A DNA stretch of 38,453 nucleotides from an uncultured archaeon (GCA_964508365.1 CAZDTP010000039.1:1-38453), one strand, 5' to 3'. Positions 8,734-30,086 are shown, numbered from the stretch's first letter. Translations and numbers: made by a program. Notes: generated from the sequence alone by a model not told the origin.

Positions 8734-10326
8734 TTGAAAGAAAATTTTAAATGGGATTTCCCATATCCTTCTAGAAGAATGCCAGTGTTAGCAGAAAATA
8801 TTGTTTCTACATCTCAACCTCTTGCCTGCCAAGCCGGACTAAGCATGCTAAGAAAGGGGGGAAACGCCATAGATGCTGCCGTAGCATCTGCTATAACGCT
8901 TACGGTGGTTGAACCAGTTAATAATGGTATAGGAAGCGATGCATTTGCTATTTTATGGGATGGTAAAAATCTTGTTGGATTAAATGCTTCTGGAAGATCT
9001 CCAGCAACATGGACACCAGAGCACTTTTCGCATAAAAAATCTATGCCACTGTTAGGATGGGATTCTGTTACAATCCCTGGAGCAGTTTCAGCTTGGAAAG
9101 AATTATCAAAAAAATATGGAAGATTAGAATTTAAAGAGCTATTTGAACCTGCAATAAAATATGCTCGAGATGGATTTATCGTATCCCCTATTACTGCTCA
9201 AGTTTGGGAAATCCTTTCTAAAATGTATAAAAAGAAAAAGTTTCCAGACTTTCATAATTGTTTTATGCCAAATGAAAGGGCTCCAATTCCAGGTGAAGTT
9301 TTTAAATCACCTGAACAAGCAAAATCTTTACAACTTATAGCTGAAACAGAAGGAGATGCTTTTTATTTCGGAGAATTAGCAAAAAAAATAGTAGAGCATT
9401 CCGATAAAACCGGCGGGTCAATAACTTTAGAAGATTTAGAAAATCACTCCTCAACTTGGGAAAAAACGATTTCAATTGATTACAATGGATTCATGCTAAA
9501 TGAAATACCCCCTAATGGTCAAGGACTAACTGCCTTACTAACATTAGGTATACTTAAGAATTTTGAGATGTCTTCTTTCGATGTTGATTCTACAGAATCC
9601 ATACATCTCCAAGCTGAAGCGATGAAATTAGGTTTTGCGGATGCTTACCAATATATTTCTGATCCTTTATATCTTAAGTTCGATCCTAAACATTTACTTT
9701 CAGAAAAATATTTAGAAAAAAGAGCGAATTCGATTAATCTAGAAAAAGCTCAGAAATTTGAAGAGGGTATAACATCTAATAGTGATACAGTTTATCTAAC
9801 CACAGCGGATGAAGAAGGTATGATGGTATCTTATATTCAATCTAATTATATGGGATTCGGATCTGGAATTGTAATACCAAATACTGGGATTAGCCTTCAA
9901 AATCGAGGAAATGGATTTAATTTAATTGAAGGCCATCCCAATCAAGTAGGTCCAAAAAAGCGACCATATCATACTATCATTCCCGCGTTTATAACTAAAA
10001 ATGGATCTCCTGTTATGAGTTTTGGCGTAATGGGTGGGTCAATGCAACCACAAGGGCATGTGCAGATGATGTTACGTATCTTTGAATATGAACAGAATCC
10101 TCAAACCGCGGTCGATGCCCCTCGCTGGAGAGTACTTCAAGGATTAGATTTAGGATTAGAACCGGGATTCAAACCACAATTGTATCATCATCTGATTAAA
10201 TTAGGTCATCAAGTTACGAAAGGACATTATTTTGAATTTGGAGGCGCTCAAATCATTTATAAGCTTGAAAAAGGATATTTAGCAGCTTCTGATCCTAGAA
10301 AAGATGGACAGGCAGTTGGTTATTAA
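8734..10326 (+). CDS. ggt: Gamma-glutamyltransferase (Ntn hydrolase)
   Basis: GGNAIDAAVA, VVEPVNNGIGSDAF, catalytic Thr in SDTVYLTTAD, LQNRG, KRPYHTIIP, GVMGG, DPRKDG. Confidence 0.95.
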   Translation: MKENFKWDFPYPSRRMPVLAENIVSTSQPLACQAGLSMLRKGGNAIDAAVASAITLTVVEPVNNGIGSDAFAILWDGKNLVGLNASGRSPATWTPEHFSHKKSMPLLGWDSVTIPGAVSAWKELSKKYGRLEFKELFEPAIKYARDGFIVSPITAQVWEILSKMYKKKKFPDFHNCFMPNERAPIPGEVFKSPEQAKSLQLIAETEGDAFYFGELAKKIVEHSDKTGGSITLEDLENHSSTWEKTISIDYNGFMLNEIPPNGQGLTALLTLGILKNFEMSSFDVDSTESIHLQAEAMKLGFADAYQYISDPLYLKFDPKHLLSEKYLEKRANSINLEKAQKFEEGITSNSDTVYLTTADEEGMMVSYIQSNYMGFGSGIVIPNTGISLQNRGNGFNLIEGHPNQVGPKKRPYHTIIPAFITKNGSPVMSFGVMGGSMQPQGHVQMMLRIFEYEQNPQTAVDAPRWRVLQGLDLGLEPGFKPQLYHHLIKLGHQVTKGHYFEFGGAQIIYKLEKGYLAASDPRKDGQAVGY

Positions 10327-14309: not shown

Positions 14310-15569
14310 ATGCCAAATTCAAAAGATTATATAGAAATGGATAATGAATATTGTGCTCATAACTATCATCCTATCCCCGTAGTGATTTCTAAAGCAGATG
14401 GAGTATGGGTTTACGATCCTGAGGGTAAAAAATATTTGGATTGCCTATCTGCTTACTCTTCGCTAAATGCGGGACATTGTCACCCAGAAATTATTAAGGC
14501 CTTAAAAGAACAAGCTGAAAAAGTTACCTTAACTTCTCGAGCTTTTTATAACGATGTAATGGGTCCCTTTCTTAAACGCTTATGCGAAGTAATAGGACCT
14601 CATGTAAATGATCCTAATAAATCAGGTATTATGGCCCTTCCCATGAACACCGGTACTGAAGCGGTATCAACTGGGTTAAAGGTTGCCAGAGCTTGGGGCT
14701 ACATTAAAAAGAAAATACCTAAAAATGAAGCTAAAATAATTATCTGTAGAGGTAATTTTCATGGAAGATCTATAACAATTGTAGGATTTAGCACAGACAT
14801 AGAAGCAGTAAGATATTACGGTAATTTTGGACCTTACACTCCTGGTTTTATTACAATTCCTTATGGAGATGCTGAAGAATTGGAAAAAAATATATTGGAA
14901 TTAGGTCCTGAAAATGTAGCAGCTTTCTTATTCGAGCCAATTCAAGGAGAGGCAGGGGTTAAAGTTCCTCCAGAGGGATTTATTAAAAAAGTTCGAGAAA
15001 TTTGCATAAAATATAATGTTCTAATGATAGCTGACGAAATACAGACTGGTTTTGGGAGAACCGGAGAATTACTTGCGTGTGATCACGAAAATGTGAAACC
15101 TGATGTGATTTTACTTGGAAAAGCACTTGGAGGTGGCGTTTACCCCGTTTCTGCAGTAGTTTCTACTAAAGATGTCATTGGTCCTGATGTTATTAAACCT
15201 GGAACTCATGGAAGCACATTTGGTGGAAATCCTTTAGCTTCAGCTGTCGCTATGAAATCTTTAGAAGTCCATATCGATGATCATTTAGCGCAACGGTCCA
15301 AAGAATTCGGAACCTATTTCTTGGATGGTCTTCGCAAAATAGCAGAAAAGAAGACAATAGTACCTATAAAAGAGGTTAGAGGTAAAGGATTATTGATGGC
15401 GATCGAGTTTGAATCAGATGCAAGACATATAGTAGAATTATTTAAAGATAATGGAATATTAGCAAAACATACTCATTCTACTAGTATTCGTTTTGCCCCT
15501 CCGCTAATTATAACTAAGGATCAAATCGACTGGGCTCTTAAAATTATCGAAGATGTACTAGTAGTTTAA
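14310..15569 (+). CDS. rocD: Ornithine aminotransferase (class III PLP)
   Basis: AHNYHPIPVV, DCLSAYSSLNAGHCHP, TLTSRAF, MNTGTEAV, NFHGRS, EPIQGEAGV, DEIQTG, PLP Lys in LGKALGGG, HGSTFGGNPL. Confidence 0.92.
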   Translation: MPNSKDYIEMDNEYCAHNYHPIPVVISKADGVWVYDPEGKKYLDCLSAYSSLNAGHCHPEIIKALKEQAEKVTLTSRAFYNDVMGPFLKRLCEVIGPHVNDPNKSGIMALPMNTGTEAVSTGLKVARAWGYIKKKIPKNEAKIIICRGNFHGRSITIVGFSTDIEAVRYYGNFGPYTPGFITIPYGDAEELEKNILELGPENVAAFLFEPIQGEAGVKVPPEGFIKKVREICIKYNVLMIADEIQTGFGRTGELLACDHENVKPDVILLGKALGGGVYPVSAVVSTKDVIGPDVIKPGTHGSTFGGNPLASAVAMKSLEVHIDDHLAQRSKEFGTYFLDGLRKIAEKKTIVPIKEVRGKGLLMAIEFESDARHIVELFKDNGILAKHTHSTSIRFAPPLIITKDQIDWALKIIEDVLVV

Positions 15570-15592
15570 AAGTTTTAACATTCAATTATGTT

Positions 15593-16516
15593 CTATATTT
15601 TTTTATTATCTTCTATAAAGAAATGAGTACCTGCCTTACCTTCGAGAGCTTCTTTAATTTTTTCTATTGATGTAATAATAGCTTGCTCACCGCCTGATTC
15701 TAAGAAGTTAATAACTGCTTGAATTTTAGGACCCATGCTTCCCGGAGGAAAATGCCCTTGTTTTAAATAATTTTTAGCATCTGTAGTTGAAACCTTATCG
15801 AGGTATTTATAATCAACTCTTCCATAATTTAAAGCGACTTTTTCGACATCTGTAGCAATTAAGAGGATATCTGCATTTATCTGTTCTCCTAATTTTGCAC
15901 TAGCTAAATCTTTGTCGATAACCGCTTCAACACCTTGAAAACGAGATCCTTCTTTAATAACAGGAATTCCACCACCACCACATGATATAACGATAAAATT
16001 TTCCCGTATTAACTTCTGAATTTCTCGAGATTGAATTATCCTTATTGGTTTTGGTGAAGGGACAACGCGCCTCCATCCCTTTGAAGTTTTTACATACCCA
16101 GGGCGTTTTCTTTTGTATGTCGGCCCAATTGGTTTGGTAGGGCGAACAAAAGCTATATCATTAGGGTCAACTTCAACATAAGTTAAAACTGTTAAGAAAT
16201 ATTTTTCTAGATCCGTACCAAGTCGCATGAGTTCCTCGTCAAGAGTAGATTCAATTAAAAATCCTATTTGTCCTTGAGTTTCAGCGACTAATATCTGCAA
16301 AGGCATTTTCGTAATCTCATCAGACGCTTCTTGTTGAAGAAGTAGTGCACCTACTTGAGGTCCATTCCCATGTGTAATAATAATATGATATTTTTCTGAT
16401 AATTCAGCAATTTGCTTTATAGGCGCTTGTAGATTATTAATCATCTGTTCGGGTGTTCCTCTTTCTCCCGGTTTTATGAGAGCATTTCCTCCAAGCGCAA
16501 CAATTAGAGTTTTCAT
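15593..16516 (-). CDS. arcC: Carbamate kinase
   Basis: VALGGNAL, THGNGPQVG, TQGQIG, KPIGP, RRVVPSP, GGGGIPV, VIDKD, GSMGPKI. Confidence 0.95.
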   Translation of the reverse strand: MKTLIVALGGNALIKPGERGTPEQMINNLQAPIKQIAELSEKYHIIITHGNGPQVGALLLQQEASDEITKMPLQILVAETQGQIGFLIESTLDEELMRLGTDLEKYFLTVLTYVEVDPNDIAFVRPTKPIGPTYKRKRPGYVKTSKGWRRVVPSPKPIRIIQSREIQKLIRENFIVISCGGGGIPVIKEGSRFQGVEAVIDKDLASAKLGEQINADILLIATDVEKVALNYGRVDYKYLDKVSTTDAKNYLKQGHFPPGSMGPKIQAVINFLESGGEQAIITSIEKIKEALEGKAGTHFFIEDNKKI

Positions 16517-16581
16517 TCAAGAGAACCTTTACTACAAACAATATAAAAGCAAATGAAAAATAATAATATTTTACTTATTAT

Positions 16582-17514
16582 TTAAAACTTATCTCGTAAG
16601 AAGAGCATTATAGCTTTTTGAGCGTGTAATCTATTTTCCGCTTGATCGAATACAAATGATTGAGGACCATCTATAACTTCAGTAGTTTGTTCATAACCTC
16701 TTTTTGCTGGTAAGCAGTTCATAAAAATTGCGTCTGGTTTTGCTGTTTCCATTATTTTTGAGTTAACTTGGAATGGCGTGAATATTATCCGCCGCTCTTC
16801 TTCTTTTTCAGCTGGAATGCCGTAAGACATCCAAGAATCGGTATATATTACATCAGAGTCCTTCGCAGCCTTATAAGCATCGTGGATCACGCTTATTTTT
16901 GCTCCAGTTTTCTTTGATATTTGAGAAACTTCATCAAGAACGACTTGTTCAGGCGTGTATTCTGTTCCAATGGGACAAGCAACATCTAAAGTCAGCCCAA
17001 AAATCGCAGCAATCCGCATTAAATCGTAAGTTACATTATTATGGGCATCTCCGAAATAACCAATTTTAAGATTATCCAATCTTCCTTTTTTCTCTTTTAT
17101 TGTCAAGAAATCTCCCATCATTTGGCAAGGATGTGCGAAATCATCCAGCATGTTGATTACCGGCACTTCCGCGTATTTAGCTAAATCCCACATATCGTGT
17201 CTTTTAAACAATCTTGCTGCTATTAAATTTACATACCTTGAAGCCGCTTTTGCTGTATCCTGGATATTTTCTTTTTTACCAAGAGGAGAATCCTTAATTG
17301 AATAAAAAATAGCATGACCTCCTAATTGTTGCATTCCTACTTCAAAGGAGATTCTTGTTCTTAAGGAAGGCTTTTCAAATATCATTAAAAGCGTTTCTCC
17401 TTTAAGACTAGATCTAAAATCTTGTGGATTCCTCTTAATTTCTATTGCCTTTTTTATAATCTTCTCAATTTCCGCTTTAGAAAAATCAGAAATTTTTACT
17501 AAATGTCGAACCAT
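16582..17514 (-). CDS. arcB: Ornithine carbamoyltransferase
   Basis: FEKPSLRTR, HPCQ, GDAHNNV, YTDSWMSYG, NCLP, AENRLH; adjacent to carbamate kinase. Confidence 0.92.
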   Translation of the reverse strand: MVRHLVKISDFSKAEIEKIIKKAIEIKRNPQDFRSSLKGETLLMIFEKPSLRTRISFEVGMQQLGGHAIFYSIKDSPLGKKENIQDTAKAASRYVNLIAARLFKRHDMWDLAKYAEVPVINMLDDFAHPCQMMGDFLTIKEKKGRLDNLKIGYFGDAHNNVTYDLMRIAAIFGLTLDVACPIGTEYTPEQVVLDEVSQISKKTGAKISVIHDAYKAAKDSDVIYTDSWMSYGIPAEKEEERRIIFTPFQVNSKIMETAKPDAIFMNCLPAKRGYEQTTEVIDGPQSFVFDQAENRLHAQKAIMLFLRDKF

Positions 17515-17608
17515 TTTAACATCATTTTACTTTTTTTAAATAGATATTCAAGGATTAATAGCCTATATTGATCTATTAATAAATATATCAAATAATAATT
17601 TATTTTTT

Positions 17609-18775
17609 TTACTTTAAATCTTCTATTTTATAATAATCACGACCGTAAGCAAGTTCTCCTAACATTTGAAGATCTTTCGAACTTAACTTTTCTATGATTA
17701 CACGACTAAGAAGCTCGCCGAGTCCAGGTCCAAGCATAAAACCTTGGCCACACATACCGACAGCATTAATGTATCCATCAATGTCATCGATTTTACCAAT
17801 TATAGGGTTTCCATCAGGAGTCATAGGATATAATCCTCTCCAAGTCCTTCTAATTTTGATGTTTTTTAATCGTGGCAGTAAATTAACCATTCGCTTTGTG
17901 ATTTGTGGTAAAAATGAGCTAGTTTCGAAACGATTCAATCCGGGAATCTTAGGTTCTGGTGTAAGGCAAAATAGGATTTTTCCTTCTTTATTTTGATAGA
18001 AATAGTAATTTTTTGAGTTTCCAAATGTCTTATCTATAGCAGGTTTAATATCTATTATCATCGTAGAAAAGAATTTTTTTACGGGTTCAGTAATCCCTGC
18101 CTCATGGCTTTCTGGAACAACAGGTAAATCAATATTAATCATGTTACCAATATCTATAGCGTGAGCTCCTGTTGCGTTAATTACTGTTTGTGTTTTGTAT
18201 TCTGCTTTATTAGTTTTTACGCCTGTTACATTTTTATTCTGTATCGTGATAGCAATAACTTTTTCGTTAAAGTTATATTCTGCACCAAATTCTTTTGATT
18301 TACGATAAAATGCATGAAGTGCTAATAAAGGAGATGAATTTCCATCTTCAGGGCTATATGTACCACCTAATAAATTATCATCATTTATTCCTGGTACTAA
18401 TTCTTTGATCTTTTCTGCATCCAAATAGTCTATATTTAATCCATATTCTTTTTGCTGGCGAACTGAAGTCTTTAGCATTTGTTCGTGTTCAGTAGTAAAT
18501 GCAAGAAAGCAATAACCACCTTGTTCCCACCAAATATCGTCTCCATACAATTCTTTCCAAGAAGCAAAAATATCTATTGATCTCTGGCATAACCAAATCT
18601 TGCTTTTAAGTGAATGAGTTGCCCTAATTCCCCCAATAGCGTGTTTATTATCGCCTTGAGCGACAGAAGGTAAACTATCAATGACAAGTGTTTTAAGTCC
18701 ACTTTCTGCTGTGGCTAAAGCAGTTGGGACGCCTATACTTCCAGCTCCTACGATGATAACATCGTATTCCACCAA
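17609..18775 (-). CDS. FAD-dependent amino-acid oxidoreductase (DAO family; proline dehydrogenase/sarcosine oxidase beta-like)
   Basis: VIIVGAGSIG FAD motif, GYCFLA, PEDG, VINATGA, RTWRGLYPMTPDGNPIIG, GMCGQGFMLGP. Confidence 0.85.
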   Translation of the reverse strand: MVEYDVIIVGAGSIGVPTALATAESGLKTLVIDSLPSVAQGDNKHAIGGIRATHSLKSKIWLCQRSIDIFASWKELYGDDIWWEQGGYCFLAFTTEHEQMLKTSVRQQKEYGLNIDYLDAEKIKELVPGINDDNLLGGTYSPEDGNSSPLLALHAFYRKSKEFGAEYNFNEKVIAITIQNKNVTGVKTNKAEYKTQTVINATGAHAIDIGNMINIDLPVVPESHEAGITEPVKKFFSTMIIDIKPAIDKTFGNSKNYYFYQNKEGKILFCLTPEPKIPGLNRFETSSFLPQITKRMVNLLPRLKNIKIRRTWRGLYPMTPDGNPIIGKIDDIDGYINAVGMCGQGFMLGPGLGELLSRVIIEKLSSKDLQMLGELAYGRDYYKIEDLK

Positions 18776-18777
18776 AA

Positions 18778-20862
18778 CTATTTACCTCCTTTCTTTGTTT
18801 TTATTCCCGCGAAAGCGCCCATAGGAACTTCTACAAACATCGGTCGTTTTGTGCCTGGATTAATATTTTCTTGTTTTATCCCTTCTTCTCGGAAAATTCT
18901 ATTAATTAGCGAGGTGCAAGTTTTTCCACCACAGGCTCCCATCCCCGCCTTAGTTAATGCTTTCAACTCGTTAAAGTCATGCACTCCATAACGAATCCAT
19001 TTTCGTATCTCCCCTACCGAAACTCTTTCGCATCTACACACTATAATATCGTCATCGGTGTATGGTTGCTGAAAGAGATCTATTGCCTCAGTATAACTTG
19101 ATTTTATAAGTTTAATACCAACTGCAATTTTTGCAATTTTTGAAGGCAACTTAACTGAAACTAATTGAGTTTTGGGAAATTCATTAAGAAATCGTGCTCG
19201 TATAACTTCAAACTCTCCTAATTCCCCATCGTTACTAACAACCATGACTGTTCGACCAACTTCAATTTTTTCAGAAGTTAATTCTAAAGGAAAAGTAACT
19301 ACTGGAGAATTTTTGTCTTTTCTATAGTCAATTAAAGTTATAGCTAATCCCGGACAAACCGCTACGCATTTTCCACAGCCAATACAATCTTGGTCGTCGA
19401 TAAAATACGGCAATTGAGTAATTAAATCGTCAACCGTCTTGATTTGCTGCTGAGGACACACACTCGTACAAGGATTGCATGGTATTTCTTGATTACAATG
19501 AAATAGTGGAAAGATGCCTTCTTCCTTTCTTATCACTTCCGTTTGAACAGGATCTGGAGGTTTTGCTCTCATTATATTAGCGAAATCTTCTAACTCTTCA
19601 AGATTTTCCGTAATTGAAACTCCAATTTCTTTTAAGATTTTTAACGCTTCAATTTTGCCGGTAAAGATTGCGGCAGAAGCTTCAGCTATTTCTTGGGCGT
19701 CACCAGCAATCCATACCTTCATATTAAATTCCTGCGCTTTATGGTAAAACTCATTTACAGGATCTAATCCAACTGCGATTAATAGAGTATCACAAGCAAA
19801 TGTTTTTTCGGATCCAGGTTCAACATCCCAGCTATCCGTTAGCTTACCAATAGTAACGGATTCTAGGTTATCTTTCCCGTTTGCGGATATCACCGTGTGA
19901 TTCGTATAGATAGGAACACCTAATCGTTTTAATTTGTCTTCATGAACTTTATATCCTCCACATTGTGATAAAGCTTCAATTAAACCTACAACATTTATCC
20001 CAGCTTGTATCGCATGATATCCTGCTATTAACCCAACATTACCTCCTCCAACAATGAATACATTTTCCGCTGCTTTTATCAAATCTCGATTTACTAAGGT
20101 TTGAAAAGCACCAGCGCCATACACTCCAGGAAGCGTGTTACCGGGAAATACAAGCATCTTTTCTCTTGCGCCAGTTGCAATTAATAAGTACTTAGGTTTA
20201 ATCAAAACATATTCGTCCATATCTTTGATAATCCCTACTAAGCCATCACTAAAAATCGCTATAACTATACTATTGACCCAAATTTTTACTGATTTAAGAT
20301 TGGATACTATTTCTCCGAGTATCTTTCCTATCTCTATACCACGTGTACCTGCATATACATCTTCTTGAGACCCAAAAAATTTATGAGTTTGAAGTACTAA
20401 TTTGCCTCCTAATTTTGATTTATCATCGACTAAAATAACATCAATATTACTTTCTCCTAAAACTTTTGTAGCAGAAAGTCCTGCAGGACCTCCACCTATT
20501 ACTAAGACTTCAGTATTTATTACATTTATATCTCTGACTTCAACGCGATCATCTTCCGAAGGTAATTCTGGTAAACCATTACAGCTCTCAATTATCATAC
20601 CTTCAGTTAATGGCGTCATACATGCTTTAACTGGGACTCCATCGGCGATTACATTACATTGAGAACATTGGCCATTCGCGCAAAAAAGTCCCTGCGGGCT
20701 GCTATCTTTTATATGATGACCAAAAGTTTTAATTTTATTTAAAAATAGAGCGGAAGATATAACCATCCCCTCGAATCCGTTAAGAGGTTTTCCATCAAAT
20801 TTAAAACCTATTTTCTTCTTATCGGGAATTTCCAGAATGGGGTGTTTGGTTATATTTTCCAT
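18778..20862 (-). CDS. Fused 2Fe-2S / FAD-NAD(P) / 4Fe-4S / BFD-like oxidoreductase (proline dehydrogenase/sarcosine oxidase alpha-like)
   Basis: CANGQCSQC...KAC (2Fe-2S); GGGPAG and GGGNVG dinucleotide motifs; CNQEIPCNPCTSVCP and CIGCGKCVAVCPG (ferredoxin); CRCERV...GMGACGGKTC (BFD-like). Confidence 0.85.
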   Translation of the reverse strand: MENITKHPILEIPDKKKIGFKFDGKPLNGFEGMVISSALFLNKIKTFGHHIKDSSPQGLFCANGQCSQCNVIADGVPVKACMTPLTEGMIIESCNGLPELPSEDDRVEVRDINVINTEVLVIGGGPAGLSATKVLGESNIDVILVDDKSKLGGKLVLQTHKFFGSQEDVYAGTRGIEIGKILGEIVSNLKSVKIWVNSIVIAIFSDGLVGIIKDMDEYVLIKPKYLLIATGAREKMLVFPGNTLPGVYGAGAFQTLVNRDLIKAAENVFIVGGGNVGLIAGYHAIQAGINVVGLIEALSQCGGYKVHEDKLKRLGVPIYTNHTVISANGKDNLESVTIGKLTDSWDVEPGSEKTFACDTLLIAVGLDPVNEFYHKAQEFNMKVWIAGDAQEIAEASAAIFTGKIEALKILKEIGVSITENLEELEDFANIMRAKPPDPVQTEVIRKEEGIFPLFHCNQEIPCNPCTSVCPQQQIKTVDDLITQLPYFIDDQDCIGCGKCVAVCPGLAITLIDYRKDKNSPVVTFPLELTSEKIEVGRTVMVVSNDGELGEFEVIRARFLNEFPKTQLVSVKLPSKIAKIAVGIKLIKSSYTEAIDLFQQPYTDDDIIVCRCERVSVGEIRKWIRYGVHDFNELKALTKAGMGACGGKTCTSLINRIFREEGIKQENINPGTKRPMFVEVPMGAFAGIKTKKGGK

Positions 20863-20889
20863 CTAGAATCAAGTTTAAATAATATTTTA

Positions 20890-23070
20890 TTATTGATAAG
20901 GAGTTATAATATCAATTATTTTATGAAAATCAATTCCCAACCTTTTTACAATATCAATTGTGGGACAACCATTTTTATTCCAACCTCTTTCTAAGTAAAC
21001 CGCATCTTGGAGCTTTTTATACTGTTCTTCTCGATGTTTTCGGATAATTTTAATTTTTTCTTCAGTAGATTTGCCCTTAATATCGATTTTCAACTCTTTT
21101 AACTGAGTATCATATCTCTCTTCTCGACTCTCGTACTCAAGTGGGGTAACCGGTCCAACGGCTCTATATGGTAAATTAGAATCGTGTTCTCGCAGCCCTT
21201 TGCCCAATCTAATATTAAAAATCCTTTGAAATGTGTACACTCTTTCAGACATCTTTATAAGATCTTCAGATGTTGATTGATGTCCTGTAACTGCGGAATA
21301 GTATTTAACATAGTTTTCAACGTGATCAGGAATTTTTGCTCGAACTAGTTCTCCCGAAATAGGATCTTTGATGGGATAATCTGCTTGACTCGTTGGTTGG
21401 ATATCGTTCCATGGAAGTTTGCATAAACCGCATAAACTAAACCAAGTTCTCCAATATGGGAACCATCTTAGAGCTTTAGCTTTATCCTCAAATGTTGGAA
21501 TCGAATTTCTAATTACATCGTCAAAAATAAGCCAAGCTTCGTCGTGTTGTGGTCCTTTATTTGTTAACCCATATCCTCCTTGTTGAGCTAAAGATTCTTT
21601 AGTTACATACTCAGAAAATTCTAATCCCTTGTGTTCCATACCAATATCTTGCACAAATTGTGCATCTGCTCCATAATTTTCGATAAAATAATGTTTCATG
21701 TATTTAATACCCTTTCCAACAGTAACTCCAAAGCCCTCACCTCTAGCCATTTGATGAATCAACTCAACCGCAGCTTCAGCGTTTCCAAAATTGAGTTCCA
21801 AACCTCCTGTTCTTACTTTATTTAGAATGCCTACCTCATAGCACTCCATTACGAAGGCTATCCCTGTTCCTACTGAAATAGTGTCTAATCCATAAGTATC
21901 ACAATAGAAATTTACTTCTAAAACCCATTTGGGATCCCATACACCCCAATTTGAGCCACAACCCGCTATTGTTTCATATTCTGGACCATCAACGATTAAT
22001 TTTTGTCCCTTAAAAGGACCTGTTCGAACTTCATAGCCCTCTGAATAATGAGAACAACTAACTGTACATCCAATCCAACATCCATCTCCTCCCTCTTTTC
22101 CAGAGTATATACCTCTCATGATCTTTCTATTGTAAGGAATGTCCTTCCCTCGAATTTCTCGATGAGCTCCGAAGCGATAATTCTCTGTTGGTAAGAGATC
22201 TGTAACATTCATAATGTCTGGAAGGTGTCCAGTCCCAACTCTACGCATTTCGTTCTGGATAGGATCGAGTTTAATTATTTCTTGTGTGTGCGCGATCCCA
22301 ATTTTTCTTGCTTCTTCTAAATTAGCGGGATTGTTTGAACTAACCGTAACTTTTGGTGCTCGACAAACTAATGCTTTAATATTTTTATCGGTAAATACGG
22401 TGCCAATTCCCCCTCGTCCAGCTTGTTTACTAGACGCCCATTTTCGGCTAGGAACATACCACGAAAAGTTTAACAACCCCCAATTTGTATGTTTTGCAGC
22501 AGGGCCTGTACTTACTACAGAAATTCGTTGTTTTTCACGATCATCTTGTGCATACACCTCAGTAAGTTGCTGGGTCAATTCATGAGAATAATTAGATAAC
22601 TTTTCTGATTCCTCAACTTCTTTAATTTGAACAACTCCTTCTACGCCATCTATGTATACAATAACTTCTTGTTGAGACTTCCCTTGAATTTCAAGCGCAT
22701 CGAACCCTGAGAATTTTAAATACGGTCCGAAATATCCCCCCACATTTGAATCTATGATAATATCTGTTAGGGGAGAAATCGTTGTAACAATAGATTTTCC
22801 AGATCCGGGATAAAAGATATTCCCTCCTAAAGGTCCTGAAGAAATGCATATTTCGTTTTCAGGATCGTTCCACTTTACAATTTTATCTTGCGGGAGTCCA
22901 TTCCACATAAGCCAAAGATCGAAACCTTTACCTCCGATAAAATTCTCTTTCATTCCGTCGGTAACGGGTTTTATCTGAATCTCATTATTGGTAAGATTAA
23001 TGTAAAGAGTTCTGTTAGTATAACCTTTTTGGACTTCGTGAAGTTCGTATTTCTTTTCTGCTAATATCAA
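20890..23070 (-). CDS. aor: Aldehyde:ferredoxin oxidoreductase (W/Mo-pterin AOR family)
   Basis: FIGGKG, DSNVGG, KFSGFDAL, QAGRGGIG, CWIGCTVSC, GPEYET, DTIS, CGLCK; TTG start with GTGAG upstream. Confidence 0.9.
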   Translation of the reverse strand: MILAEKKYELHEVQKGYTNRTLYINLTNNEIQIKPVTDGMKENFIGGKGFDLWLMWNGLPQDKIVKWNDPENEICISSGPLGGNIFYPGSGKSIVTTISPLTDIIIDSNVGGYFGPYLKFSGFDALEIQGKSQQEVIVYIDGVEGVVQIKEVEESEKLSNYSHELTQQLTEVYAQDDREKQRISVVSTGPAAKHTNWGLLNFSWYVPSRKWASSKQAGRGGIGTVFTDKNIKALVCRAPKVTVSSNNPANLEEARKIGIAHTQEIIKLDPIQNEMRRVGTGHLPDIMNVTDLLPTENYRFGAHREIRGKDIPYNRKIMRGIYSGKEGGDGCWIGCTVSCSHYSEGYEVRTGPFKGQKLIVDGPEYETIAGCGSNWGVWDPKWVLEVNFYCDTYGLDTISVGTGIAFVMECYEVGILNKVRTGGLELNFGNAEAAVELIHQMARGEGFGVTVGKGIKYMKHYFIENYGADAQFVQDIGMEHKGLEFSEYVTKESLAQQGGYGLTNKGPQHDEAWLIFDDVIRNSIPTFEDKAKALRWFPYWRTWFSLCGLCKLPWNDIQPTSQADYPIKDPISGELVRAKIPDHVENYVKYYSAVTGHQSTSEDLIKMSERVYTFQRIFNIRLGKGLREHDSNLPYRAVGPVTPLEYESREERYDTQLKELKIDIKGKSTEEKIKIIRKHREEQYKKLQDAVYLERGWNKNGCPTIDIVKRLGIDFHKIIDIITPYQ

Positions 23071-23619
23071 AGAATCTCACTCTATTAAGTTCTAATTTTT
23101 AAAATAAAAACATAATTTTGAATTATGCTTGATTAAATGAGACTATTGAGTTAAATTTTATTTAAATCAATTTCAAATAAAGATTAAAGAAAAAAAAAAT
23201 AATTTTTTTTAGAATTTTATTTCATGGATTTAGAACGCTTTTTAATAATTAATGCCATGATTGAACCTAAAGTAGCAATAAGTAATAACACATTATATCC
23301 CGGAATACCAGGTGGCTCTGTTGTTGAAGTGTTTTCTATTTCAAAGTATTCGCTATAGGCTAGGATGGATGCATCAGATACATCAATAATTTTTATCTGA
23401 TAGTCGTCAGAACTCAAGAGTCCCGTGGAGACTACCCAGTAATATTCACCATCATTAGCAGTGCTTGAAATAATTTCCATAACGAACACATCATTTCTAT
23501 AGAGTTCAAGTTTAATATTCGAAATACTCCCTTTTGAGGACCAAGATATACTCTGAGAAGTACCACATTCCCACGAAGAGGAAATAGTTGGAGTAATAAT
23601 CGTTAACGATTGATTATCA

Positions 23620-24172
23620 ACGATTACACTAATACAGTTTGATGAAGTATTTCCCATTTGATTATGCGCAACAACGATAAAATAGTAGGTTCCGTTCGAA
23701 TATCCGCTTAATCCTGAGCTCAGATCGGTGATTTCGTCCGCTAAAAGGGTTAAACTACCGTTAATTTCCGTGATAAAACTGGAGTATTGATATACAGAAT
23801 AATTGCTTGCACTTGAAGATGTTGTCCAAGAAAGAGTAAAAAGTCCATCGTAATCGGGATCGCCCGCATTCGAAGATAACATGAAGCTTCCCGGAAGTAA
23901 GCCCACCACAACAGTAATGCAATTTGATAAGGTCGCACCGTAAGTGTTATTTGCAACGACAATGAAATAGTAGGTTCCATCTGAATATCCGTTCAAATAT
24001 GAACTTAGATCGGTGATTTCATCCGCTAGAAGGGTTAAACTGTCGTTGATTTCCGAGATGAAGCTGGAGTATTGATATACAGAGTAATTAGTTGCGCCAG
24101 AAGAAGCAGTCCAATTTAAAGAAAAAATACCATCCAAATCAGGAACATCGGCATCCGTAGACAATGTAAATG
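23620..24172 (-). repeat. Two tandem ~270-nt Fn3-like domain repeats
   Basis: NYSVYQYSSFI(S/T)EIN(D/G)SLTLLADEITDLSS...GYS(D/N)GTYYFIVVA duplicated with high DNA identity. Boundaries approximate. Confidence 0.85.
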
Positions 24173-24180
24173 GATAGGGC

Positions 24181-25184
24181 TCGTTATCAAAGAGATAGAC
24201 CTTGTTATCATGGCCTCCCGCGGCAATATACTGCCCATCGGACGAGATTGCTACCGAATTTACAGTACCTCCTGTAGTGTAGCTCCATAGGGGGGTAGAA
24301 CTGGCTTTATTGAAGAGATATACCTTATTATCCCCGCCTCCCGCGGTAATGTGCTGCCCGTCGGACGAGATTGCCACCGAATGTACATCATCTCCCGTAG
24401 TATAGTTCCATAGGGGGGTAGAACTGGCGTTATCAAAGAGATAGACCTTATCATCCGTGCCTCCCGCAGCAATGTAATGCCCGTCGGACGAGATTGCCAC
24501 CGAACGTACATCATCTCCCGTAGTATAGTTCCATAGGGGTGTCGAGCTGGCGTTATCAAAGAGATAGACCTTGTCATCATAGCTTCCCACGGCAACGTAC
24601 TGCCCGTCGGACGAGATTGCCACCGAATTTATTAGTCCTCCTGCAGTGTAGTTCCATAGTGGTATTCCATAGGAGTAGGCGGAGCTGTCTCTATTAAAAA
24701 GATAGATCTTGTCACCAAAACCTCCCGCGGCAATGTACTGCCCGTCGGAGGAGATTGCCACCGAAATTACTATATCTGCGCCACCTTCCATTTCGTAGCT
24801 CCATAGTGGGGTGGAGCTGGCTTTAGAAAAAAGATAGACCTTGTTGTAAAATCCCGCGACAATGTACTATCCGTCGGAGGAGATTGCCACCGTATATACA
24901 GTAGTTGTTCTAGTGAAGATCCATAGGGGGGTGGAGCTGGTTTTATTGAAGAGATACAGATTGCCATCATTAAAGGGAGTCCCGCTTCCCACGGCAATGT
25001 ACTGCCCATCGGAGGAGATTGCCACCGAACGTACCCAACCTCCCGTTGTGTAGTTCCATAGTGGGGTGGAGCTGTCTTTAGAAAAAAGATATGTCTTGTT
25101 ATCCCAGCCTCCCGCGGCAATGTACTGCCCGTCGGAGGAGATTGCCACCGAATATAGGCCATCTCCCGTAGTGTAGCTCCATAT
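24181..25184 (-). repeat. Eight tandem ~126-nt coding repeats (propeller blades)
   Basis: Consensus LWxYTTGxxVxSVAISSDGQYIAAGGxDxKVYLFxxxSSTP; DNA core GTGGCAATCTCsTCCGAyGGGCAG nearly invariant. Confidence 0.95.
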
Positions 25185-25415
25185 GCTATTAGCACTTCTG
25201 ATATCTCTCTCATTTACCGCTCTTGCTTCATTATGAGATAGGGTTGTCTCTAAAAATATAAAAGGACTTGAAAGAAAAATCGCCAGAATTAATAGTAATG
25301 CAATTCTTACATTGATTTTTTTATTTTTATACATTAATTTTTACCCAAATATAAACATTTTTGTATAGGTTTCCTTAGCTTTGTAGCTAATTCAATAGTT
25401 GAAAAGATAAATATT

Positions 25416-25429
25416 TTTGAGCATATAAA
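25416..25429 (-). promoter_or_regulatory. Candidate TATA-containing promoter element of the propeller gene
   Basis: TTTATATGCTCAAA on the minus strand, about 85 nt upstream of the ATG; the identical 14-mer occurs at 27237-27250. Confidence 0.45.
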
Positions 25430-25504
25430 CTTAGTATAATTTAGGTAAGATATAAGACGGGATACATTCATTAGAAAAGCAGAAAAGAACATGAAGAAAT
25501 TTAT

Positions 25505-25735
25505 ATGAAAAAACTACCTGAAGCTGATAGAAAAGTACTTGTTGATCCTCAAATTCTTTCTATGTTTCTTAAGAACAATGCTGAAACATTTCGCCAAGAT
25601 AGTAAAGGAGCATAACATGAAGGGAAAATATATGCAAGATCTTGGGGTTTTAACCTAAAAGATATATCTCCCAAACTTAAGGTATATATATGGAATGGAG
25701 ACCTTTTTCACCATCTGAAAAAAAATAACTTATGA
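25505..25735 (+). pseudogene. Alpha/beta hydrolase remnant
   Basis: MKKLPEADRKVLVDPQILSMFLKNNAETFRQDSKGA*HEGKIYARSWGFNLKDISPKLKVYIWNGD: internal TAA; WGFxLxDI...VxIWxG resembles the C-terminal half of alpha/beta hydrolases; no N-terminal half present. Confidence 0.6.
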
Positions 25736-25791
25736 AAAAAGAGGTTTTTGATATCTACCCTTTCTGCATAATAAACTTTAAAATATTATTT

Positions 25792-27135
25792 TTATAAAAA
25801 TTTTTCAATAAATGTGTCCAAAGTTTCTTCAATTGTCGGACTTTTGACAGATTCGATATCGTACGAAACTCTAATAATGGGTTTGTTGCTATTAATTAAT
25901 TTTGCAAGGTCTATCGGGCTACCATCAATTATAAATTCACATTCGGCTTTGTTGAGAGAATCTTCCATGTCTTTAATCTGTTGGTCGTTGTACCCCATAG
26001 CAGGAACTATCTGTGTGATCTGTGGAAATTCTTCAAATACTTTCTTCATTATACCTGTGATGTAAGGTTTAGGATTGACAATAATAGCACCACTATTGGT
26101 TGCTGCGACAAATCCTGCTCCATAAGACATACTTCCGTGAGTTAATGTTGGTCCATCTTCAACTACAATCACCTTTTTCCCCTTTAAATCGTGATTTCCT
26201 TCGATAGTTACGACCGAATTGGTATATATTTTAGTCGCGAGAGGATTTAACTCGTTTAGATTAGCTTCAACAATTTTTACATCTTCTGCTTTTGCGTTAT
26301 TCATCTTATTAATTACAAATGCGTCAGCTGATCGAGCGTTCACTTCACCGGGATGATATTTCATCTCGTGTCCGGGTCTCAATGGATCTACTACGATAAA
26401 GAGCAAATCTGGAACATAAAACGAGAGTTCGTTATTTCCACCGTCGAAAATTATAACATCTGCTTCTTTTTCTGCCTGTCTAACGATTTTTTCGTAATCC
26501 ACTCCAGAGTAAATTACCAGCCCCTGCTCAATGTAAGGTTCGTATTCCTCTCGCTCTTCAATTGTACAATTATATTTATCTAAATCTTCGTACTTCTCAA
26601 AACGCATTACATTTTGTTTAATCAAATCACCGTAAGGCATTGGTTCTCTTATTGCAACTACTTTATAGCCCTTTTTCATTAAATATCTGTAAGTTGCTCT
26701 AGACACTTGGCTTTTACCGCATCCAGTTCTCACCGCACATATAGCTACAACGGGTTTATTAGACTTGATTTGAGTAAATTTTCCAGATATTAATTTATAG
26801 TTTGCTCCCGCAGATAACACACGGGAAGCTTTATGCATTACTTCTTCGTGAGAAACATCAGAATACGCAAATACCACTTCATCTATTTGATGATGTTTAA
26901 TAATTTCTTCGAGATGTTCTTCGGGAAGCATTGGGATGCCTTTCGTATATAATTTACCTGCTAATTCCGCCGGATATTTCCTTTGGGTCTCTTCGGTCGT
27001 CCCAACATTCTGTTCTCCCGCGATAGTGAACGCGATAACTTCATATTCTTCATTGTCTCGAAAAACGGTGTTGAATAAGTGAAAATCCATTCCTAAAGCT
27101 CCAATAATAACAACTCTCTTTTTTTGCATAGACAC
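25792..27135 (-). CDS. arcE: COG2403 P-loop protein (cyclic 2,3-diphosphoglycerate synthetase-like); probable arginine synthetase ArcE homolog
   Basis: GALGMDFHLFN..FRDN, YPAELAGKLY..GIP, AVRTGCGKSQ, PMPYGDL, CTIEEREEYEP, DGGNN, PGHE..YHPGEVN, VEDGPTLTHG, PAMGY. Context with OTC and carbamate kinase. Family recognition is strong; the function is inferred. Confidence 0.75.
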   Translation of the reverse strand: MSMQKKRVVIIGALGMDFHLFNTVFRDNEEYEVIAFTIAGEQNVGTTEETQRKYPAELAGKLYTKGIPMLPEEHLEEIIKHHQIDEVVFAYSDVSHEEVMHKASRVLSAGANYKLISGKFTQIKSNKPVVAICAVRTGCGKSQVSRATYRYLMKKGYKVVAIREPMPYGDLIKQNVMRFEKYEDLDKYNCTIEEREEYEPYIEQGLVIYSGVDYEKIVRQAEKEADVIIFDGGNNELSFYVPDLLFIVVDPLRPGHEMKYHPGEVNARSADAFVINKMNNAKAEDVKIVEANLNELNPLATKIYTNSVVTIEGNHDLKGKKVIVVEDGPTLTHGSMSYGAGFVAATNSGAIIVNPKPYITGIMKKVFEEFPQITQIVPAMGYNDQQIKDMEDSLNKAECEFIIDGSPIDLAKLINSNKPIIRVSYDIESVKSPTIEETLDTFIEKFL

Positions 27136-29418: not shown

Positions 29419-29826
29419 TTAGTAGTGGATTATCTCAAGATCTTCAATTCTTTCAAAATGATTTGTATTTTTTGTTATTATTTTCTTTATCCCATTTGAT
29501 AACATAATACCCGCAATAAGAATGTCGTTGTCATCAATTACAAGACCTTGGGATTCTAAATTATCATAAACCTTAGCTGCCATTTCAGCTTCTTTATATC
29601 CTAATGGAAAGATTTCCATGCTGCTAATAAATTCAGTCCATATTTTATAGAGTTCATTATATCTTTTTTTGGATATTTTTCTTTTAGTCCTTTCTAAGCC
29701 AATATTGATTTCATACACTGTAATTGATGTAATATGAATTAAATCTTCCTGTTTAGAGATACTTTTTTTAATTTCTTCATTACCATTGAGATAATCAATG
29801 CAGGCAGAAGTATCTAATATGATCAT
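29419..29826 (-). CDS. vapC: PIN-domain toxin (VapC)
   Basis: IILDTSACID, ITVYEI, IDDNDILIAG, ITKNTNHF acidic PIN motifs; 4-nt overlap with the antitoxin. Confidence 0.92.
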   Translation of the reverse strand: MIILDTSACIDYLNGNEEIKKSISKQEDLIHITSITVYEINIGLERTKRKISKKRYNELYKIWTEFISSMEIFPLGYKEAEMAAKVYDNLESQGLVIDDNDILIAGIMLSNGIKKIITKNTNHFERIEDLEIIHY

Positions 29827-30062
29827 TTAATCTCACCGATTTCGGAATCTTTCCAACTACGACCGGGACGATTTGAAATATCTTCCCAAATTTCATTTTT
29901 TTCTTTTGCTGAAAGGTTCCAAGTTCCAAAATTTTTTTCCATATTCAGCTTTTGAATTTTTAACAATCGTAAAAAAAGTTCAGAAAAACTCTCATTCTTC
30001 CTTTTAATCTTCATTAATTTTTTATATACTTCTTCGGTTATACTGATATTTTTTGAAGTCAT
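29823..30062 (-). CDS. vapB: VapB-type antitoxin (archaeal DUF217-like)
   Basis: MTSKNISITEEVYKKLMKIKRKNESFSELFLRLL; probable start is ATG 30062, not 30086. Confidence 0.85.
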   Translation of the reverse strand: MTSKNISITEEVYKKLMKIKRKNESFSELFLRLLKIQKLNMEKNFGTWNLSAKEKNEIWEDISNRPGRSWKDSEIGEIK

Positions 30063-30086
30063 ATGTATATATGTATACATACACAT
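30061..30086. promoter_or_regulatory. Palindromic candidate autoregulatory operator of vapBC
   Basis: Perfect 12-bp palindrome TATGTATACATA at 30070-30081, with an adjacent near-palindrome just upstream of the vapB start. Confidence 0.5.

Follow-up and report, generated by a model that had tools for sequence, protein, structure and literature searches.

A 38,453-nucleotide stretch of DNA from an uncultured archaeon (GCA_964508365.1 CAZDTP010000039.1:1-38453), referred to here as the window, contains a gene cluster at positions 14310-27135 that appears to specify arginine breakdown without an arginine deiminase. The cluster includes a homolog of ArcE, the arginine synthetase that was first described in 2024 (PMC11032458), alongside genes for ornithine carbamoyltransferase (OTC), carbamate kinase (CK), the ornithine aminotransferase (OAT) RocD, and a redox module composed of an aldehyde:ferredoxin oxidoreductase (AOR), a fused Fe-S flavoprotein and a DAO-family flavoprotein. 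Sequence, genome content and synteny give good support for deiminase-free, ArcE-based arginine catabolism in this Asgard archaeon, and extension of the pathway to glutamate via the AOR is plausible. The cluster as a whole is interpreted with moderate confidence as an accessory island for the catabolism of arginine, and probably also of proline, in which ArcE, OTC, CK and RocD operate together with the redox module.

Genes were called from a listing of open reading frames combined with Pfam and NCBIfam scans. All of the genes that the first-pass annotation of the window had named were recovered in this interval, which is occupied as follows:

14310-15569, plus strand: rocD, ornithine--oxo-acid aminotransferase (OAT; TIGR01885, 533 bits vs. 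a cut-off of 378)
15593-16516, minus strand: arcC, carbamate kinase (CK; TIGR00746, 368 bits vs. a cut-off of 358)
16582-17514, minus strand: arcB/argF, ornithine carbamoyltransferase (OTC; TIGR00658, 367 bits vs. a cut-off of 281)
17609-18775, minus strand: DAO-family beta-like flavoprotein of 388 aa, a proline-dehydrogenase-like catalytic subunit (PF01266, 198 bits)
18778-20862, minus strand: fused alpha-like Fe-S flavoprotein of 694 aa (Pfam Fer2_4, Pyr_redox_2, 2x[4Fe-4S] and BFD)
20890-23070, minus strand: long AOR-family tungsten/molybdopterin aldehyde:ferredoxin oxidoreductase of 726 aa (AFOR_N and AFOR_C)
23217-25334, minus strand: WD40/Ig-like/Loki-CTERM surface-protein gene of ~2.1 kb, broken by a TAG codon (Pfam WD40 and Kre9_KNH; NCBIfam Loki-CTERM)
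25792-27135, minus strand: arcE, COG2403-type P-loop protein of 447 aa from a variant subclade (similarity to Thermococcales ArcE; no Pfam or NCBIfam match)

The six pathway genes other than rocD share the minus strand, and rocD converges on the CK gene across a gap of 23 nt, in agreement with the gene orientations described initially. The intergenic gaps between the minus-strand genes from AOR through CK are only 2-94 nt, and the DAO and 694-aa flavoprotein genes are separated by 2 nt.

The ArcE homolog was compared with the homologs of P. furiosus, P. horikoshii, T. litoralis and further Thermococcales species, a set which did not include the TK2200 sequence itself. Over ~442 aa, the full length of the protein, the identity was 53–56% with scores of ~515 bits. 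The Thermococcales homologs are treated as arcE orthologs of the assayed TK2200 protein (PMC11032458). The Walker A motif GCGKS spans residues 138–142 of the protein from the window, and its P-loop matches the one in the Thermococcales homologs exactly. The assignment of the COG2403-type protein to the ArcE family, and not to the cyclic 2,3-diphosphoglycerate (cDPG) synthetases, is supported by these sequence comparisons, as the first-pass annotation had proposed. Genomic neighborhoods were inspected for ArcE homologs in 80 diverse bacterial and archaeal genomes, with no Thermococcus among the loci: CK was located within 8 kb of the ArcE homolog in 15 genomes and OTC in nine. Moreover, protein P0129 (766 aa), encoded on a Logan metagenome contig, comprises a carbamate-kinase-like N-terminal part fused to an ArcE homolog (residues 328–753), and this Rosetta-stone fusion supports a functional link between ArcE and CK.

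The genome from which the window derives is 4.07 Mb and 100% complete. Arginine deiminase (ArcA, PF02274) was not found in this genome, whereas control genomes gave matches in the same search. Arginase was also considered: the single arginase-family gene (PF00491) adjoins a deoxyhypusine synthase gene and is an agmatinase, and was rejected as an arginase. Thus, the description of the cluster as deiminase-free, which had been made from the window, holds genome-wide. The argG and argH genes, the presence of which had been left as a question, both reside elsewhere in the genome in a complete argH-argJ-argB-argD-argC-argG operon (contig C2, locus L172, 4674-12274) that lacks argF, and carB also is present elsewhere. 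ArcE therefore is dispensable for arginine synthesis and, following the reasoning applied previously (PMC11032458), a catabolic role for the protein is likelier. The rocD gene of the cluster is distinct from the argD gene of the biosynthetic operon. No OTC besides that of the cluster is encoded in the genome, the one further match scoring 142 bits, which is below the TIGR00658 cut-off. As there is no other OTC, the enzyme from the cluster also serves biosynthesis.

Gene order in the cluster was examined in related genomes. The order arcE-AOR-flavoprotein-DAO-OTC was retained in 10 of 10 loci from the family to which the archaeon belongs (f1), such that AOR neighbors arcE in every case, and the CK and OAT genes come next where the contig allows. 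This conservation indicates that the arrangement is not due to chance. Within the family, arcE, the flavoprotein gene and the OAT gene are either jointly present or jointly missing, and this presence or absence as a block fits an accessory island. In the sister family (f2) a shorter arcE-OTC-CK-OAT cluster is found without the redox module. Of 151 genomes sampled from the phylum, 127 had an ArcE homolog. However, in the other Asgard families sampled the ArcE protein (40–57% identity) is encoded without the remaining cluster genes, the exceptions being one adjacent CK gene and one weak match to the OTC family ~6 kb distant. Hence, the synteny with Asgard relatives that the first-pass annotation had raised is firm within one family, takes a shorter form in the sister family, and is not a general property of Asgard archaea.

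In the proposed pathway, ArcE would convert arginine, ADP and Pi to citrulline, NH3 and ATP, OTC would catalyze phosphorolysis of citrulline to ornithine and carbamoyl phosphate, and CK would generate a second ATP from the latter. These activities are extrapolated from the Thermococcus enzymes. RocD, for which the family assignment is clear and the direction is presumed, would transaminate ornithine to glutamate-5-semialdehyde, a compound that equilibrates with pyrroline-5-carboxylate (P5C). The DAO protein and the Fe-S flavoprotein most likely would feed L-proline, or a related cyclic or secondary amine, into the same P5C/semialdehyde pool. The AOR most likely would then oxidize glutamate semialdehyde to glutamate with transfer of electrons to ferredoxin or to the Fe-S flavoprotein. 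It is likely that the portion of the pathway formed by ArcE, OTC, CK and RocD works as proposed; the part assigned to the redox module is considered separately below.

The flavoprotein and Fe-S genes were left unassigned in the first-pass annotation. The DAO protein has as its best match in the PDB the beta subunit of L-proline dehydrogenase from P. horikoshii (1Y56_B; 1.3e-52, 182 bits), with the next match at 89 bits. The 694-aa protein possesses an N-terminal 2Fe-2S domain (Fer2_4), FAD/NAD(P) Rossmann domains, a 2x[4Fe-4S] ferredoxin domain and a BFD-type 2Fe-2S domain, and matches both the alpha subunit SoxA (2GAG_A, 2e-22) and the alpha subunit of P. horikoshii proline dehydrogenase (1Y56_A, 2.2e-19). 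The cysteines for its four Fe-S clusters are all invariant in seven orthologs. NCBIfam equivalog models for the pair all scored below their cut-offs. As adjacent homologs of the B and A chains of 1Y56, the two proteins are L-proline-dehydrogenase-like and activity on L-proline is predicted. Neither a P5C-dehydrogenase equivalog nor a PutA-type Pro_dh was found in the genome. The DAO gene always adjoins the gene for the 694-aa protein, and this holds in bacteria and across other Asgard families as well; in five of the latter the pair forms a stable two-gene unit on its own. The neighborhoods of the pair in these five families were uninformative, save for one Pro_dh gene: in genome G025 (family f18), a PutA-type Pro_dh (PF01619; L134, 4735-5661) lies ~3 kb upstream of the stand-alone pair, which may hint at proline metabolism or at another substrate for the pair in that organism.

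The AOR includes both characteristic domains of the family (PF02730, AFOR_N, 161 bits; PF01314, AFOR_C, 310 bits), and its best PDB match is 1AOR (8e-51) followed by FOR (1B25) at 4e-41. Residues Cys331, Cys335, Cys339 and Cys550 are invariant in 22 orthologs and are predicted to hold a [4Fe-4S] cluster. The AOR ortholog is single-copy in families f1, f2, f5, f7 and f22. Orthologs with 55–61% identity also were found in 13 of 301 genomes of a bacterial phylum that was reached through locus L050 (NCBI label, delta proteobacterium). In four to five of 10 bacterial loci, the AOR gene is beside genes for the fused flavoprotein (56–60% identity) and DAO protein (47–52%), with no arc genes. The triads at the bacterial loci examined have no betaine, sarcosine or hydroxyproline genes beside them, and at one bacterial locus a class-III aminotransferase gene is positioned just upstream. 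The recurrence of the AOR-flavoprotein-DAO triad in two domains of life argues that the AOR is tied to the product of the flavoenzyme. As the product of a proline-dehydrogenase-like enzyme, P5C/glutamate semialdehyde, is the same compound that RocD makes from ornithine, the AOR emerges as a candidate semialdehyde oxidase. Precedents are the FOR of P. furiosus, a tungsten enzyme which binds glutarate and reportedly prefers a C5 dialdehyde or semialdehyde, and the AOR of Aromatoleum, which is coupled to an FAD subunit (PMC12096430). Glutamate semialdehyde is put forward tentatively as the AOR substrate. A broader proposal, which is somewhat doubtful, is that AOR, the Fe-S flavoprotein and the DAO protein constitute a tungsten-dependent, ferredoxin-linked functional analog of PutA that would take proline- or ornithine-derived semialdehyde to glutamate without an NAD-dependent aldehyde dehydrogenase, and that the block moved between Asgard archaea and anaerobic bacteria and was wired in one Loki-type family into a variant, eukaryote-related ArcE pathway.

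AOR orthologs were noted in other settings also. In Candidatus Bathyarchaeota archaeon A05DMB-4 (G153), a long AOR ortholog (L193, 8946-11048) is 59–62% identical to the protein from the window, and its surroundings lack both the flavoprotein pair and arc genes. Some AOR loci of family f5 have an Arf GTPase gene and an Ldh_2 gene in the vicinity. Several genomes of family f7 encode, near the AOR gene, a 929-aa HdrA/NfnB-like flavoprotein, an HdrC-like ferredoxin and a CCG-domain HdrB-like protein (L149, 14289-17837; L150, 2912-3850), and these Hdr-like proteins may be an alternative electron-transfer partner for the AOR of that family.

A number of observations weigh against the interpretation of the cluster as a catabolic island that leads to glutamate. 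Two generic aldehyde dehydrogenase genes in the genome could oxidize glutamate semialdehyde. ProC also is present and OAT could therefore serve proline synthesis, and the OTC, being the sole copy, is anabolic as well. Family f7 retains the AOR ortholog in 23 of 26 genomes, with the OAT ortholog and the flavoprotein each found in none of the 26, and two genera of family f1, g3 and g6, retain the AOR without arcE, OAT or the flavoprotein. The AOR clade thus is not strictly specific to this pathway. Furthermore, no conserved neighbors that would indicate the substrate of the AOR were detected outside family f1 in 20 loci from other Asgard families and genera. The ArcE protein itself is without three near-invariant residues of the family, Arg-16, His-164 and Asp-236, which are replaced by Met, Glu and Glu, respectively. 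Finally, all of the activities assigned to the cluster are sequence-based predictions. The first-pass interpretation accordingly stands in its placement of the protein within the ArcE family, in the absence of arcA and in synteny, and is modified by the proline-dehydrogenase-like nature of the flavoprotein and Fe-S pair, the additional biosynthetic role of OTC, and the variant nature of ArcE.

Among alternative explanations, the arc genes might act as proposed with AOR, the flavoprotein and the DAO protein forming a self-contained mobile module for a different amine, the two sets of genes having only regulation in common. Candidate chemistries include the oxidation of sarcosine or N-methyl amino acids, in which an FOR-like enzyme would convert the released formaldehyde to formate, and that of D-proline or hydroxyproline, leading to alpha-ketoglutarate semialdehyde. 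The occurrence of the bacterial triad without any arc gene, of the flavoprotein pair alone in five other Asgard families, and of the AOR ortholog in family f7 without OAT or the pair would all be accommodated by such a module. The alpha-like protein, moreover, is no closer to 1Y56_A than to the alpha subunit of sarcosine oxidase, and the Pfam scan revealed no folate-binding domain in it. However, the DAO protein scores 182 bits with 1Y56_B compared to ≤78 bits with sarcosine oxidase beta subunits, and the redox module is located between arcE and arcB in all 10 family loci. The lack of betaine, sarcosine or hydroxyproline genes beside the bacterial triads examined, and the class-III aminotransferase gene just upstream at one bacterial locus, also speak against an independent module. 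The explanation consequently is judged unlikely, albeit with an appreciable chance of being correct, and the role in arginine and proline catabolism is preferred.

The three replacements in ArcE were assessed in the context of the family. Residues Arg-16, His-164 and Asp-236 are 97–99% conserved elsewhere in the family and are present in every Thermococcales homolog. Of 157 other family members, 126 show the full R-H-W-D pattern, which includes Trp-230, as do all of the Thermococcales homologs. The replacements are shared by a subclade that consists of the ArcE proteins of families f1 and f2, the metagenomic proteins P0122 and P0123, and a protein from Creolimax. Across this subclade, Arg-16 is replaced by Met, Tyr or Phe, and His-164 and Asp-236 by Glu; Trp-230 is changed to Phe in the two Asgard families. 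In phylogenetic trees, the f1 and f2 proteins group with the two metagenomic proteins and with the ichthyosporean eukaryote Creolimax (SH-like support of 99), whereas ArcE from other Asgard families is placed apart from them with Thermococcales and many bacteria. A single Asgard ArcE clade was rejected in an approximately unbiased (AU) test (p = 7e-5), for which the group was delimited only once the first tree was available. The Creolimax fragrantissima protein (P0133) possesses the M-E-E signature and keeps Trp-230. In contrast, the green-algal homologs P0409 and P0410 (Pseudoscourfieldia and Pycnococcus) keep the R-H-D residues and branch elsewhere.

As three near-invariant residues are replaced, the exact reaction of this ArcE remains predicted. 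The correlated replacements that mark the entire subclade, together with its separation from other Asgard ArcE in the trees and in the post hoc AU test, would be compatible with a changed substrate or reaction, for example with another guanidino or ureido compound, such that the first step would not be arginine to citrulline. Nevertheless, 113 of 131 conserved family columns are kept in this ArcE and the P-loop is unaltered in comparison with Thermococcales. The variant gene is directly beside those for OTC, CK and OAT in the sister family and is inside the arc cluster here, and by its score the OTC is a genuine ornithine rather than putrescine carbamoyltransferase. A change in the reaction of ArcE therefore is considered rather improbable, and conversion of arginine to citrulline is retained as its expected function.

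The reverse direction, in which ArcE would make arginine from citrulline, NH3 and ATP independently of ArgG and ArgH, also was entertained in the first-pass annotation. ArcE is reversible in vitro and supports the growth of T. kodakarensis on citrulline (PMC11032458), and the cluster carries the only OTC in the genome. Set against this, the genome already has the complete arginine operon along with carB, and the cluster carries CK and a catabolic-type ornithine aminotransferase, so that a biosynthetic cluster is very improbable. The identification of the COG2403 protein as a cDPG synthetase can be dismissed for practical purposes: although public names for close homologs are 'predicted GTPase' or 'cDPG synthase' and the M. 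fervidus enzyme (8ORU) is the top fold match of the AlphaFold2 model (pLDDT of 92), identity in that match is 16–17%, the M. fervidus enzyme was not recovered from the PDB by phmmer at E ≤ 1 with the single ArcE sequence, and the ArcE-family profile reached cDPG synthetases at just 54–74 bits over partial stretches, whereas the protein from the window scores ~515 bits with Thermococcales ArcE homologs. LpxK (4EHY) was the next fold match, as likewise reported for TK2200 (PMC11032458).

The WD40/Loki-CTERM gene that sits between arcE and the AOR gene, which the first-pass annotation had not mentioned, encodes a secreted WD40 beta-propeller protein that also carries a Kre9_KNH domain, a pair of Ig-like repeats and a sorting signal of the Loki-CTERM type. 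The gene is not found at this position in L007 and most other f1 loci, in which the gap between arcE and AOR is ~0.1 kb. It is therefore regarded as a lineage-specific insertion outside the pathway. An in-frame TAG codon (24867-24869) interrupts the gene at a site where sister repeats read SSDGQY with a Gln codon at the stop position, and the broken gene probably reflects recent pseudogenization or a sequencing error. The Loki-CTERM domain, in combination with the source names of close homologs, supports a Loki-type Asgard origin for the window and agrees with the provenance that had been suggested from sequence. Upstream of the cluster are a gamma-glutamyltranspeptidase gene (8734-10326, plus strand), then an FGGY kinase gene and then a CitMHS-family transporter gene. 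No arcD-type arginine/ornithine antiporter was recognized in or near the cluster. On the other side, a PIN-domain protein of 135 aa is preceded by an overlapping open reading frame of 87 aa (29419-30086, minus strand) in an arrangement that resembles a VapBC-type toxin-antitoxin pair.

The ArcE pathway and its presence in Lokiarchaeota have been published already, with Lokiarchaeota among the listed carriers of arcE (PMC11032458). In the literature that was searched, no description was found of the cluster architecture, the recurring AOR-flavoprotein triad or the ArcE variant, nor were reports found that link arginine synthetase with Asgard archaea, or Lokiarchaeota with AOR and ornithine. The island could carry arginine, and perhaps proline, fully to glutamate, and would yield low-potential reducing equivalents along with two ATP made at substrate level. 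Such a yield bears on the amino-acid-based life of energy-limited, syntrophic Asgard archaea. Moreover, the cluster supplies a concrete hypothesis on what an orphan clade of tungsten-type oxidoreductases acts upon, and draws attention to an ArcE subclade that has changed conserved residues and counts a unicellular eukaryote among its closest relatives.

The closest known counterpart is the pathway of T. kodakarensis (ArcE, TK2200; ArcB, TK0871; ArcC, TK2158; Michimori et al. 2024, PMC11032458; 2026, PMC13260591). The two systems employ the same three protein families, arcA is absent from both, arcE is clustered with arcB and arcC, the Asgard ArcE is 53–56% identical to Thermococcales homologs, and two ATP per arginine are expected. 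However, the Asgard genes form one cluster that also holds rocD, the AOR gene and the proline-dehydrogenase-like pair, the Asgard ArcE belongs to a separate subclade in which Arg-16, His-164 and Asp-236 are replaced, and the host has carbamoyl phosphate synthetase and a full arginine biosynthesis operon that T. kodakarensis does not possess. The classical arginine deiminase pathway (arcA-arcB-arcC-arcD) has OTC and CK in common with the cluster and likewise takes citrulline to ornithine, CO2, NH3 and ATP, but the Asgard genome is without the deiminase and an additional ATP is anticipated from the first step. The M. fervidus cDPG synthetase (8ORU/8ORK) shares the overall fold and a remote superfamily (COG2403) with ArcE, but differs in its 16–17% identity, in going undetected by single-sequence search and in its genomic context.

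The redox module also has partial counterparts. In the L-proline dehydrogenase PDH1 of P. horikoshii (1Y56, alpha4beta4), heterotetrameric sarcosine oxidase and enzymes of the HcnABC and opine oxidase types, a DAO beta protein and a Pyr_redox_2 alpha protein are side by side as in the cluster, whereas the Asgard alpha-like partner is a 694-aa fusion that adds the N-terminal 2Fe-2S, 2x[4Fe-4S] and BFD 2Fe-2S domains. The AOR has AFOR_N and AFOR_C domains and a conserved set of four cysteines in common with AOR (1AOR) and FOR (1B25/1B4N) of P. furiosus and with AorABC of Aromatoleum aromaticum (8C0Z), the last of which passes electrons to an FAD subunit. The Asgard protein, in contrast, is ~120 residues longer at 726 aa and belongs to a distinct clade that is common to several Asgard families, a metagenome-assembled genome of Bathyarchaeota and some bacteria. 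Finally, the chemistry proposed for the module, proline to P5C/glutamate semialdehyde and then to glutamate, is that of PutA, which combines proline dehydrogenase and P5C dehydrogenase. The likeness is by analogy only: the protein families are unrelated, a DAO/Fe-S flavoprotein and a tungsten-type AOR would substitute for the Pro_dh barrel and the aldehyde dehydrogenase, and the electron acceptors would be ferredoxin or Fe-S centers instead of quinone and NAD+.

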